Part shown: positions 54,454 through 59,255 of the stretch, piece after piece
Numbering within the stretch: position 1 is the first letter of the stretch
Layout of the letters: each line of letters begins with the position of its first letter
Sequence record: ON286974
DNA from: Escherichia phage W115
DNA: 64,000 nt
Strand: one strand, 5' to 3'
Made by a program: the position numbers and the translations under genes
The notes under the pieces: generated by a model
Databases searched by the model: none
Told to the model about the DNA's origin: nothing
What the model saw: only the letters and a program-made list of their open reading frames with translations

Positions 54454-55110
54454 ATGCAAGTTTCTGAAAAAGAGAAAGACTTTGCTATCTCAAATGTCCT
54501 GCGCGCTATTTTCACAACTAAAAGCACGGAGTTGCTCGTACTTCGTGTTTTTGCTGCCGTCGTGTTGTCCATATTAGCATTTGTCGTTTATAGTAAAAAC
54601 GAGTTATTTGCGCTTTATAAAGAGACTCGTTATGAGACTTATGCTCACGTTCTCCAGGTAGAGAAAGACCGCAATTTTGATAATGCAGCACAGGAGCAGT
54701 TACAGATAGTTCATGTGTCGGCTGATGCCGATTTTTCTGCTGTTTTTAGTTTTCGTCCGAAAAACCTAAACTATTTTGTTGATTTGGTGGCATATGAAGG
54801 AAAGCTACCGCACACAATCGATGAAAAAAATTTAGGCGGATTCCCTATCAATAAAACGAGTGAAGAATATCGTAGGCATCTTTTAGGTAAATCATATTTT
54901 ACCGATAAAGATTTCCAGTATATTCCATCAAGAGAAAAGAAATTAGAGAATATCGATATAGGTTTCATGTATTCTTGTCCTATATTCAATCTCGATAATG
55001 TCTATTCTGGTAGTATCGCCATTGCATGGAGGAATAAACCAGATATTGACATTGAGAATTTAGATACTCTTTGCAATCAATCTGCCAGAATCCTCGGAAG
55101 GATTAGATAA
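54454..55110 (+). CDS. t: holin
   Basis: 218 aa; single N-terminal TM and periplasmic domain with strong similarity to T4 holin T (LQIVHVSADADFSAVFSFRPKNLNYFVDLVAYEGKLP, ARILGR). Confidence 0.9.
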   Translation: MQVSEKEKDFAISNVLRAIFTTKSTELLVLRVFAAVVLSILAFVVYSKNELFALYKETRYETYAHVLQVEKDRNFDNAAQEQLQIVHVSADADFSAVFSFRPKNLNYFVDLVAYEGKLPHTIDEKNLGGFPINKTSEEYRRHLLGKSYFTDKDFQYIPSREKKLENIDIGFMYSCPIFNLDNVYSGSIAIAWRNKPDIDIENLDTLCNQSARILGRIR

Positions 55111-55116
55111 CTTAAA

Positions 55117-55149
55117 AGGGGAAGCCTTTCGGCCTCCCCTTCTTTTTTA
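55117..55149. terminator. bidirectional rho-independent terminator after t
   Basis: Hairpin ggggaagcc-tttc-ggcctcccc with T-run; A-run on other side. Confidence 0.65.
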
Positions 55150-55395
55150 TTGGCGCATAGAAGCCCCTGAATCACATTTTGACGCTGTATGATGAAAACA
55201 TGTAGCGTACCAGTCATCGGCTTGTTTGTCTTCGTCAGAAAACGCGTAATTTCGTTGTATACCGTTTTCTACTTTGACCAGTGCGATAGCTGTTTCTGGA
55301 AGATCAATCAATCGGACAAAATCGCCATCTTCCCATTCTACACGAGCAATATCATAGCCCATCTCAAAGTATACAATCGCTTGTTCTAATTTCAT
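55147..55395 (-). CDS. DUF2829-like small protein (Tad2-like candidate)
   Basis: 82 aa; N-terminal LEQAIVYFEMGYDIARVEW and C-terminal KQADDW resemble the DUF2829 signature. Confidence 0.4.
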   Translation of the reverse strand: MKLEQAIVYFEMGYDIARVEWEDGDFVRLIDLPETAIALVKVENGIQRNYAFSDEDKQADDWYATCFHHTASKCDSGASMRQ

Positions 55396-57109: not shown

Positions 57110-57403
57110 TTATTTTCGGTTGTGGTCGCGATATGTTTTAAAATATCCCTCGTACCACGGTAAAATATCTGGATTTTTACCACTATACAGACCTTTAACC
57201 ATCATGTCAATAAGGCCATCTGGTGTCTGATAGTTTCCAGCTTTTATAAGCTCTCTGATTAAAATCTCTCTGTATATGTCTTTCGGATCTTCGTAATCAA
57301 CTTGTATTGTGGTTGTGGTTGTGGTCTCATTCAATTTGGTTTCTGGAGTATCTCGCATTGCATCCCACCAATCTTTTGTGACCTTCATGTTATTGAATTG
57401 CAT
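57110..57403 (-). CDS. hypothetical protein (97 aa)
   Basis: Track ORF with Thr-rich linker. Confidence 0.4.
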   Translation of the reverse strand: MQFNNMKVTKDWWDAMRDTPETKLNETTTTTTIQVDYEDPKDIYREILIRELIKAGNYQTPDGLIDMMVKGLYSGKNPDILPWYEGYFKTYRDHNRK

Positions 57404-57414
57404 AATTTAACCTC

Positions 57415-58173
57415 TTACTTGCAAACGTATTGATCTACATCAATTGCGCCACCGAATGTAGGATGACGTTTTTCAAATCGAATAGTTCCGTCGTTTGGTT
57501 CGAAAACGGAGTATTCATATAGATCTTTCTTGCCAACATTCTTATAAAACCCGCCTTTAGTCATAACGGTTTCTTGTACGTTTGCTTTGTGTACGTTGTA
57601 TTCATCAATGTATACAAAATCAACCATCTTCCCATTTTTAATGGTTACTTTAAGATCCCCTGGCTGGTTTCCATATTTTGCATACAGTGGAGCCTCTTTA
57701 ATTTTGGTGGAAATTCCATCTTTCATACTCCACTCATAACGAACGGTGCATTGATAGGTAAAAGTTTCAACCTTCGGTTCTTCCACCACTTTTTCTTCCT
57801 GTTTCGGTTGTTCTTCGTCAACCTTCACGGAAGTCTCTGAATCGCTTTCTGACGCGGTCTCTTCTTTAGGTAATACATTCATCAAGTTTTGGATTTGAGC
57901 GTTGTATACAGCCTCCAGTGGCTGAATCTGCCCGATATTGATCATTGTATCACGAACAGTTTTATTCCAGTTGCGTTGCTCTTGTTTCAGAGACGGATCA
58001 ATCTTAACAGCTTTAACATATACTTCATGAAGTTTAGAGTCCAGTGCGGAGATAGACTCATTAGAACAAATAAACTTCTCTGATTTGGTAGTAGCTTTAG
58101 CGCAATCAAAGGACGCAGCGTTAGCACCGAAAGCAGTAGCAGAAAGAACGATAGCAGCGATAATGTTTTTCAT
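57415..58173 (-). CDS. secreted protein with LprI-like (DUF1311) N-terminal domain
   Basis: 252 aa; signal peptide MKNIIAAIVLSATAFGANA; FDCAKATTKSEKFICSNESISALDSKLHEVY ... QEQRNW pattern of DUF1311; acidic linker; Cys-flanked beta-rich C-terminal domain. Confidence 0.5.
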   Translation of the reverse strand: MKNIIAAIVLSATAFGANAASFDCAKATTKSEKFICSNESISALDSKLHEVYVKAVKIDPSLKQEQRNWNKTVRDTMINIGQIQPLEAVYNAQIQNLMNVLPKEETASESDSETSVKVDEEQPKQEEKVVEEPKVETFTYQCTVRYEWSMKDGISTKIKEAPLYAKYGNQPGDLKVTIKNGKMVDFVYIDEYNVHKANVQETVMTKGGFYKNVGKKDLYEYSVFEPNDGTIRFEKRHPTFGGAIDVDQYVCK

Positions 58174-58242
58174 AATATATTCCTCAGTGTTTTGTCTTGA
58201 TGGGAGTATCTTACTACTCCCTTAATCCGGTGTCAACTATTT

Positions 58243-58398
58243 TTAAATTTCTTCTACAGTAAAGTCTTCAATGTTATTGTGCTCGGAGAACGTTGCCAGA
58301 CCAGCATTCCATGCATCATCCTCAGAGAAGAATACACCGTAACGTTCATATCCTTTAGCGCCTTCAAATTTAACCATTAATTTGTGAGTATGTTTCAT
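58243..58398 (-). CDS. hypothetical small protein (51 aa)
   Basis: True start MKHTHKLMVKF...; track N-terminus is PeSL promoter. Confidence 0.35.
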   Translation of the reverse strand: MKHTHKLMVKFEGAKGYERYGVFFSEDDAWNAGLATFSEHNNIEDFTVEEI

Positions 58399-58468
58399 TT
58401 TGATTCTCCTTCGTTGTCTTGATGAGTTCATTGTAGGGGATCGCCGATCCCCTGTCAACAACTATTTT

Positions 58469-58681
58469 TTAATTTTTACCCGCTCGTGCATTAATACGCA
58501 TTTTCTGAATAGCCATGATCTGGCTTACTGCTTCTTCTTTACGTTCTTGCGTGATAACGTGACCAGATTCCGCAAACTCTCCCGCAACTTCTTCTACGAT
58601 CTCGCGAACTTGAGAACGTCCAAAGATGCGGTTTCCTTCGTAGCTCATAAACTCGGTTACTACTTGCTCGATAGATTTCAT
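58469..58681 (-). CDS. hypothetical protein (70 aa)
   Basis: Track ORF with GGAGAA RBS. Confidence 0.4.
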   Translation of the reverse strand: MKSIEQVVTEFMSYEGNRIFGRSQVREIVEEVAGEFAESGHVITQERKEEAVSQIMAIQKMRINARAGKN

Positions 58682-58747
58682 GTGATTCTCCTTTCGTTTC
58701 GGTGTGGGAGTATGTTAATACTCCCATTTCTTTACGTCAACCAGTTT

Positions 58748-58990
58748 TTAGAAATTTTTCGCTTCTTCTTCGGTCATCATCACCGCGCATTCGTGCATAA
58801 CTTTGAAAACCGGGTCAATCATATCGAATGCTTCGCTGGACAGTTTACGAGAAGCGATTTTGATTGCTTCAACGTCTTCTACTACAGGAACAAAAACAGT
58901 TTTCAGTTCGTCGAGCACGGCAGCTTCTTTTTCATTCAGGAAGATCCCAGCGTCGTACAGTGCAACTTCGATAACATTAACTTTAACCAT
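58748..58990 (-). CDS. hypothetical protein (80 aa)
   Basis: True start MVKVNVIEVALYDAG... after GGAGGAAATAAAA RBS. Confidence 0.4.
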   Translation of the reverse strand: MVKVNVIEVALYDAGIFLNEKEAAVLDELKTVFVPVVEDVEAIKIASRKLSSEAFDMIDPVFKVMHECAVMMTEEEAKNF

Positions 58991-59030
58991 TTTTATTTCC
59001 TCCAGTTCGTTTCGGTATGGGAGTATAATA

Positions 59031-59255
59031 CTACCGATGACCTTTGGCGTCAACTGCTTTTTTATTATTTTCGTGAAAATTTTTCGTCGCCTCATGTGCT
59101 TTTCGCTGGGCTTCTTGTTGTGCTTGCTGGCGTGCTGCCTCTTGTGAAGCCATAACGGAAGCATTTGCAGCAGTTACAGCCGCTACCATCGCTGCGGTAT
59201 TAGCATTTACAGTACATGCACTAGCCAGCAAAGCAATTGCAATCATTTTCTTCAT
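59031..59255 (-). CDS. small secreted/lipoprotein-like protein (74 aa)
   Basis: Signal peptide MKKMIAIALLASAC with possible lipobox; Ala/Gln-rich helix. Confidence 0.4.
   Translation of the reverse strand: MKKMIAIALLASACTVNANTAAMVAAVTAANASVMASQEAARQQAQQEAQRKAHEATKNFHENNKKAVDAKGHR

Follow-up and report, generated by a model that had tools for sequence, protein, structure and literature searches.

Why does a virulent T4-like phage keep a gene for a putatively secreted protein whose N-terminal part hardly changes while its C-terminal part is exchanged, and what might such a protein do? The question is raised by an open reading frame (ORF) of Escherichia phage W115 (record ON286974), of which a stretch of 64,000 nt, called the window below, was analysed. 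The window stems from a Krischvirus (an RB49-like relative of T4), and the 2.6 kb around the ORF match 58 phage records with 90-99% identity. The ORF (57415..58173, minus strand) is a complete coding sequence of 252 aa plus stop and the ortholog of RB49ORF260c. It is a genuine gene under purifying selection, which confirms the ORF proposed in a first, sequence-only reading of the DNA: it starts with ATG (58173..58171), has the Shine-Dalgarno sequence GAGG 9 nt before the start codon (58182..58185, minus strand), was found in 56 phage records (at least 80% coverage), and is kept in 56 of the approximately 58 Krischvirus records. It lies in a plastic region between the holin gene t and the topoisomerase gene 52, and every record labels its product hypothetical. 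In PHROGs the protein belongs to family 14799, to which no function is assigned there, the automatic UniProt name of the RB49 protein is "LprI-like N-terminal domain-containing protein", and a search of NCBIfam with the 252-aa protein returned sub-threshold noise only. As described below, the window protein is a member of the LprI-N family with an orphan, swappable barrel domain, and thus a known family in a new form. What is most interesting about this locus, and also most firmly shown, is its mosaic evolution and the traffic of the gene between lytic and temperate phages.

The sequence-only reading had recognised a cleavable-looking signal peptide, a DUF1311-like segment, an acidic linker and a Cys-flanked, beta-rich C-terminal domain, and all four parts were recovered, as predicted features, in this order. 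The signal peptide comprises residues 1-19 (58117..58173, minus strand). The leader MKNIIAAIVLSATAFGANA, which is followed by AS, has the n-h-c layout with one basic residue, a hydrophobic core and an A-x-A site, and is without a lipobox; cleavage by signal peptidase I (SPase I) is predicted between ANA and AS. The motif AASFDC at the predicted cut is invariant across 28 aligned relatives, distant bacterial ones included, while the leader itself varies. In an AlphaFold2 (AF2) model, which was run on the 28-sequence alignment, residues 1-17 have a predicted local confidence (pLDDT) below 50. No lipoprotein signal was found in the leader: it ends with GANA before ASFDC, and the first Cys stands five residues past the predicted SPase I site, without an L-x-x-C context.

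The mature part would begin with an N-domain of the LprI/DUF1311 type (residues 20-102; 57868..58116, minus strand), which was delimited by Pfam, the AF2 model and substitution rates. The Pfam family PF07007 (LprI, formerly DUF1311) matches residues 24-76 with E=6.8e-5 and 23.6 bits, compared to a curated cutoff of 22, over model positions 1-71 of 106. By these values the match of the window protein is marginal and partial, covering about two thirds of the model. The same family matches all 21 close family members (best E 9.7e-6), and distant phage relatives reach 23.1-28.4 bits. The N-domain is predicted to fold into a helical bundle (helices 30-37, 39-58, 62-80 and 83-98; pLDDT about 88). 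PF07007 proteins are said to have four conserved cysteines forming two disulfides (PMC7933661), and the window N-domain has a single pair, Cys24 and Cys36, with INIGQIQPLE standing where the bacterial relatives have C-x-D-x-x-C. Sequence searches of the Protein Data Bank (PDB) gave nothing credible, whether the query was the family profile or only the N-module. Judged by profile and predicted fold, the N-domain is a divergent LprI/DUF1311 domain. The N-module also occurs in other arrangements: in the relative P0028 it is fused to PF11738, and a metagenomic bacterial relative of 436 aa (P0021) contains three tandem modules, each with AASFDC and LprI-N, followed by a Cys-containing C-terminal region.

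The acidic linker (residues 103-134; 57772..57867, minus strand) carries a net charge of -7 and is disordered in the AF2 prediction (pLDDT below 50; segment 105-131). The C-domain (residues 135-252; 57418..57771, minus strand), present in the window as the allele designated A, is predicted to consist of eight beta strands (residues 135-251, pLDDT about 88), with Cys142 (57748..57750) and Cys251 (57421..57423) on the first and the last strand. Both cysteines are invariant in the family; when 14 C-domain alleles were compared, one Gly was the sole other invariant residue. The AF2 model of another allele, C', has the same plan at lower confidence (pLDDT 65).

This domain order resembles bacterial proteins in which DUF1311 is combined with an MliC domain, and the sequence-only reading had connected it with lysozyme inhibition. 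That connection was not supported. The MliC profile (PF09864) had no match at E up to 10 in any of the 21 family members. When 1.84 billion representative proteins were searched exhaustively with a profile of the C-domain, only its own family was retrieved, plus long proteins matched via many short stretches, which we judged to be probably compositional, and a Foldseek search of the C-domain against the PDB gave no significant match. In a fold comparison, unrelated barrels (Cap15, outer-membrane proteins, avidins, lipocalins) score level with MliC, PliC, ACP and PhiA, and the C-domain resembles ligand- and protein-binding barrels generally, such as NHBA, fHbp, TbpB and lipocalins. Callewaert et al. 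2008 reportedly described two loop motifs of MliC/PliC inhibitors, SxSGAxY and YxxxTKG, which insert into the active site. These motifs are not conserved across the 14 C-domain alleles; a TKG (in VMTKGG) is present in allele A and not kept in the others. We therefore rejected membership of the C-domain in the MliC/PliC group on the grounds of the missing Pfam and significant PDB matches, and retained only the description as a barrel of similar size. Since the C-domain is an orphan without an MliC match or a significant fold match in the PDB, any resemblance to the DUF1311 plus MliC plan is at the level of architecture or fold at most. The C-domain is thus a sequence orphan and, by its modelled fold, only a generic small eight-stranded barrel.

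The two parts of the protein evolve at different speeds. In close relatives everything from the signal peptide through LprI-N into the first part of the linker is near-invariant, whereas the C-domains are very different. There are at least seven C-domain subtypes (A, A2, A3, B1, B2, C and C'), with 16-39% identity to the window allele A and up to 57% between neighbouring subtypes. DNA identity profiles reveal a sharp breakpoint at about nt +390 to +410 of the gene, within the linker. In the phages JSE, Phi1 and GEC-3S the divergent block extends through the next small gene, and in UPWr_E1 the C-domain alone differs. According to Nei-Gojobori estimates, the N-module has a synonymous divergence (dS) of 0.09-0.24 and a ratio of nonsynonymous to synonymous divergence (dN/dS) of 0.03-0.13. 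Between C-domain alleles dS is above 1.3 or saturated, with dN/dS of about 0.24 where measurable, and within one allele there is almost no change; for the linker dN/dS is 0.25-1.1. Since divergence between alleles is saturated, change within alleles is near nil and dS of the N-module is low, the C-domain alleles are old, each of them constrained, and have been recombined onto a much younger or homogenised N-module.

The same division is seen at larger distances. Relatives in phages of Klebsiella (F48), Aeromonas (CC2) and Salmonella (SSU5) keep the signal peptide, the LprI-N domain and a charged linker, and carry unrelated C-domains, again with two cysteines. Such a pattern would be expected if the C-domain were a specificity module. 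It could thus belong to an exclusion factor that does not act on a hydrolase at all: the variable barrel would bind at another step of infection exposed to the periplasm, for example an outer-membrane receptor on its periplasmic side, an entry factor of the inner membrane, or the tape-measure protein or the tip of the tail tube, and LprI-N would be a mere stable, exportable scaffold. The lack of inhibitor motifs in the C-domain and its likeness to general binding barrels agree with this, and other phages are known to have exclusion factors that are secreted or lipoproteins (the Ltp family; PMC3952083). A mere scaffold, however, would explain neither the near-invariance of the N-module (dN/dS 0.03-0.13) nor its repeated association with the antagonism of cell-wall enzymes described below, and we consider this explanation doubtful.

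The gene is not confined to lytic phages. A chromosomal copy is present in 26 of 5426 complete E. coli genomes, and its first 381-408 nt are 93.7-95.8% identical to the window gene. In the loci examined, a prophage has inserted into hicB, and this copy is its final cargo gene, standing before the truncated hicB. A promoter-like sequence (TTGAAA-16-TAAAGT) lies 40 nt upstream of it and a terminator with a 10-bp stem downstream, both assigned at the level of consensus only. Being a unit of promoter, gene and terminator at the end of the prophage and unrelated to phage core functions, the prophage copy has the properties of a moron. At the insertion site itself, the hicB antitoxin gene was left as a C-terminally truncated pseudogene by the prophage, and the hicA toxin gene is intact (E. 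coli chromosomes L004 13013..13546 and L005 13034..13564).

At least three alleles (A2, B2 and C') occupy the prophage locus between identical flanks. The prophage allele classes are also found in Krischvirus context (C in JSE, B2 and A2 in the metagenomic contigs L018 and L020, respectively), the A2 protein of the prophage shares 94% identity with a Krischvirus protein from end to end, and the synonymous divergence of the N-module between phage and prophage is no greater than between phages. In two prophage alleles, the stop codon is followed by a remnant of the gene that adjoins it in Krischviruses (RB49ORF259c type), namely its initial 75 nt or so, ending in a premature stop. Because prophage copies carry this truncated neighbour, the sequences point to a movement of the gene from a T4-like phage into the prophage, which probably happened more than once. 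The GC content, considered as another clue to the direction, proved uninformative, since the prophage itself has about 41% GC. The nearly identical DNA (94-96% over approximately 400 nt) that virulent Straboviridae share with an E. coli prophage is a concrete instance of a gene having moved recently across the divide between lytic and temperate phages. It also has a consequence for annotation: the database label "lysozyme inhibitor LprI family protein" carried by these E. coli genes is unverified and was derived from the N-domain alone.

How is the gene expressed in the phage? Upstream of it, consensus scanning, folding and conservation revealed an early promoter cassette of the PeSL type (58202..58250, minus strand). 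It comprises an AT-rich tract (58237..58250), a -35 box TTGACA (58236..58231), a -10 box TAAGAT (58213..58208) after a 17-nt spacer, and a stem-loop GGGAGTA/TACTCCC (58221..58202) overlapping the -10 box. The sigma70 consensus scan gave 10 of 12 matches, and the hairpin folds with -13 kcal/mol (z = -2.3). The element is kept in five other Krischviruses (RB49, JSE, Phi1, GEC-3S and UPWr_E1), and in the GEC-3S record an independent annotation puts a promoter at this position. Arbiol et al. showed that the PeSL cassettes of RB49 and phi1 act as strong promoters in the early phase and as sites of recombination (PMC2839356), and the element in the window, followed by the Shine-Dalgarno sequence and the ATG, has every part of their published definition (PMC2839356). 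Since PeSL elements are known strong early promoters, the gene is, judged from this sequence, very probably expressed early. A series of same-strand, promoter-like TTGACA-17-TAnnnT sites, the one just described included, precedes successive small ORFs (at 58458, 59053, 58740, 58236 and 57210; 57182..59053, minus strand), which looks as expected for an array of PeSL cassettes.

In a hyperplastic region so rich in ORFans and recombination cassettes, the gene could in principle be a functionless hitch-hiker shuffled by PeSL recombination. This is hardly credible in view of the strong purifying selection on the N-module and inside each C-domain allele, the retention of the gene across Krischviruses and its intactness, with three alleles, in prophages.

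Our preferred explanation, to which we assign a probability of roughly 0.35, is that the protein is a periplasmic binder in phage-phage competition, i.e. in superinfection exclusion, which captures an incoming periplasmic component, a cell-wall hydrolase being the first candidate. The points that we infer are export and disulfide formation, the capacity to bind, the nature of the target and exclusion itself, and the sequence of events may be pictured as follows. The protein would be made early from its own strong sigma70 promoter cassette, exported by Sec and cut between ANA and AS, resulting in a mature periplasmic protein of about 26.6 kDa. In this form the constant helical LprI/DUF1311 domain would be joined by a flexible, acidic tether of 32 residues to an eight-stranded beta domain clamped by a disulfide. 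In the periplasm of the infected cell or of the lysogen it would act as a stoichiometric binder or inhibitor and capture a component delivered by incoming phages, the leading candidate being a hydrolase of the cell wall, for instance a tail lysozyme of the gp5 type. A common activity or anchoring may come from the constant N-module, and an allele-specific target range from the swappable C-domain.

The signal peptide with its conserved mature N-terminus and the Cys pairs present in both domains speak for a periplasmic destination. We favour a role in competition because DUF1311 relatives set a precedent, by experiment or by gene context (see below), for the neutralisation of cell-wall enzymes acting in the periplasm, and the fusion of the N-module to PF11738 in P0028 was counted in the same sense. 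The contrast between an N-module with dN/dS of 0.03-0.13 and ancient, stable C-domain alleles we read as the signature of a competition gene, and the terminal cargo site in the prophage, which we count as a typical position of exclusion genes, supports exclusion. Taken in the light of known phage systems, the early PeSL promoter, the terminal prophage position and the failure to detect Sp (Spackle) and Imm in RB49 despite the presence of gp5 (see below) would fit an exclusion or competition factor. Of the interpretation offered by the sequence-only reading, the LprI-N assignment, the domain order and the plausibility of an exclusion role thus stand, while an inhibitor architecture of the MliC type found no support; for lysis timing, which it had named as an alternative, we found no specific support.

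To our knowledge, superinfection exclusion in T4-like phages is understood mechanistically for Spackle and Imm only. Spackle (gp61.3) of T4 is made early, resides in the periplasm and inhibits the tail lysozyme gp5 (PMC7677548). A tblastn search of the genome of the Krischvirus RB49 with T4 Sp and Imm detected no homolog, and the controls gp41, gp61 and Dmd were found; when Sp was compared to the RB49 genome plus the window, the only match was a spurious one inside gene 41 (E=0.11). The RB49 genome contains exactly one domain of the T4-lysozyme type, located within gp5 (599 aa; L013 44783..46582), and this lysozyme domain has an isoelectric point of 9.4. Since the gp5 lysozyme was found and a Sp homolog was not detected, in RB49 a candidate target is present and the known inhibitor is missing. 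A second match of the T4-lysozyme type, such as an e-type endolysin would give, is not present in the RB49 genome; the endolysin of RB49 must be of another family, because the sole domain of this type sits in gp5.

Two observations weigh against the capture of tail lysozymes by the window protein as a replacement of Spackle. First, the lysozyme domain of gp5 is essentially invariant in Krischviruses (57 records with at least 99% identity and 2 with 95-99%; other genera have at most 64%). The polymorphic C-domain can therefore not be tracking the phage's own lysozyme, and a co-evolution of the two was rejected. If gp5 of the own type is among the targets, it is more plausibly recognised by the constant N-module, and the C-domain would address heterologous targets. 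Second, the Klebsiella phage F48 holds both a syntenic Spackle-like ORF and an LprI-N protein, and for the wider family we thus rejected the view that LprI-N proteins generally replace Spackle. The F48 ORF, vBKpnF48_103 (L022 8841..9122), adjoins the gene 41 homolog and encodes a hypothetical protein of 93 aa with a signal peptide, whose match to T4 Spackle spans residues 1-38 of the latter (E=6e-9); by sequence it is probably an unannotated, diverged Spackle.

Based on our observations, we put forward only tentatively a more general proposal: that phage LprI-N proteins may be previously unrecognised, polymorphic periplasmic exclusion factors, each with a constant exported handle (LprI-N and the acidic tether) and interchangeable disulfide-clamped warheads drawn from an allele pool common to virulent T4-like phages and prophages, and that they take Spackle's place in Krischviruses. 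If this were true, the weapons of inter-phage warfare would be common property of lytic phages and lysogens. A small, readily cloned secreted protein with a natural allelic series offers a direct experimental handle on exclusion, and since the alleles A, A2, A3, B1, B2, C and C' share an identical N-module, they could reveal how the specificity of exclusion is encoded.

The adversary need not be a phage, however. Polymorphic C-termini on a constant N-terminus resemble polymorphic toxin/immunity systems, and carriage by a prophage fits lysogenic conversion. The protein might thus be an immunity-like shield neutralising bacterial peptidoglycan hydrolases that act in the periplasm, such as effectors of type VI secretion systems (T6SS) or lysozyme-like bacteriocins, and protecting the lysogen, or the infected cell until burst. 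The only experimentally supported role of a DUF1311 protein of E. coli that we found is of this kind: Etsi4 rescues the toxicity of the periplasmic T6SS effector Etse4 (PMC12981562). In Pantoea, orphan immunity genes with an LprI domain adjoin lysozyme-like effectors in T6SS islands (PMC9796082), and by gene context LprI-domain genes are also found next to WHIX effectors. Against this, neither in the phage nor in the prophage does an effector gene or a T6SS component adjoin the gene: its neighbours are phage ORFans or prophage ORFs without a Pfam or PADLOC match, and the PADLOC defence profiles did not match the 252-aa protein, its neighbour or the prophage cargo genes. Furthermore, a virulent phage with a short cycle would gain little from such a shield, yet 56 of about 58 Krischvirus records keep the gene under strong purifying selection and an early phage promoter. 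We regard an immunity function of this kind as unlikely.

A further relative could point to a role in the host's own wall metabolism. The Salmonella protein ScwA, a periplasmic protein with an LprI domain, has no lysozyme phenotype, raises the levels of MltD, and its overproduction leads to lysis (PMC7933661); its lack of a lysozyme phenotype also speaks against reading the LprI architecture as lysozyme-inhibiting. By analogy, the window protein could modulate host wall enzymes, e.g. a lytic transglycosylase as in the pair ScwA-MltD, or the periplasmic lysis machinery, and tune envelope integrity or lysis inhibition. The distance of only about 2.3 kb to the holin gene t (54454..55110) would agree with this, but it is explained by the plasticity of the region between t and 52, which is full of unrelated ORFans. 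Host enzymes and holin are conserved, so that the ancient polymorphism of the C-domain would remain unexplained, a prophage moron perturbing lysis would have no obvious benefit, and the gene is driven by an early and not by a late promoter. Such modulation thus seems improbable to us, and the capture of a component of incoming phages is still the explanation that we prefer, a remainder of probability being reserved for explanations outside those discussed.

The surroundings of the gene deserve a short description. Upstream of it, the gene content of the window follows GEC-3S and not RB49. Downstream lies a small gene for a 97-aa protein (57110..57403, minus strand), the ortholog of RB49ORF259c, which had no Pfam or PADLOC match. 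It exists in two diverged forms, exchanged along with the C-domain in JSE, Phi1 and GEC-3S, and contains an (ACCACA)n tract encoding poly-Thr, with 6 Thr in the window and 4 in RB49. The small signal-peptide ORF that the sequence-only reading had noticed nearby does exist (59031..59255, minus strand; 74 aa): it is annotated in GEC-3S (67 aa) and absent from RB49, and therefore represents an insertion/deletion cassette. Its leader, which ends with LLASAC before TVNA, could contain a weak lipobox or an SPase I site, and its mature part is rich in A, Q and E. A longer ORF (58748..59164) overlaps with it in a different frame, and in GEC-3S only an 80-aa part of this longer ORF (58748..58990) is annotated. 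Pfam scans of the prophage cargo neighbours and of most nearby phage ORFs were uninformative, with the exception of an 82-aa ORF adjoining the holin gene (55147..55395, minus strand). It matches the Tad2-like family (Thoeris anti-defence 2) with E=3.4e-6 and 27.9 bits, compared to a cutoff of 25 bits, and may be considered a candidate anti-defence gene in the plastic region.

Finally, the window protein can be compared to the known systems. With T4 Spackle it shares the early phage gene, the signal peptide, the (here predicted) periplasmic location and the proposed role in blocking the tail lysozyme of a superinfecting phage. There is, however, no relation in sequence or fold, Spackle being a small helical bundle in contrast to the helical domain plus barrel found here, and Spackle is conserved whereas the window protein is polymorphic. 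LprI of M. tuberculosis is a lipoprotein combining DUF1311 and MliC, and in PMC7933661 its MliC part is credited with lysozyme inhibition. The window protein differs by the absence of a lipobox and of an MliC match (21 members), by its orphan C-domain, by one Cys pair instead of two in the N-domain and by its long acidic linker. Likewise, it is set apart from the MliC, PliC, ACP and PhiA inhibitors: there is no profile match, the loop motifs reported for these inhibitors are absent, and unrelated barrels score equally.

ScwA is similar in being a soluble periplasmic protein with an LprI domain, DsbA-dependent disulfides and a history of horizontal acquisition. Its LprI domain, however, is located at the C-terminus of an all-helical protein of 275 aa without a barrel, and the similarity is confined to this domain. 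With the DUF1311 immunity proteins of T6SS (Etsi4 and the Pantoea orphans) the window protein has in common a putatively periplasmic DUF1311 domain, and the documented or predicted role of this kind of protein is to neutralise periplasm-acting, cell-wall-targeting proteins; it differs in that its gene is borne by phages and prophages, has no adjacent effector and is preceded by an early phage promoter, and in that the protein has an additional polymorphic C-domain. Like other prophage morons, the prophage copy is a unit of promoter, gene and terminator at the end of the element. Last, a canonical PeSL precedes the window gene as it does in other PeSL cassettes, but here recombination has its principal breakpoint within the gene, in the part coding for the linker, and not only at the flanking PeSLs. 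Therefore, what is exchanged at this locus is a domain and not a whole ORF.

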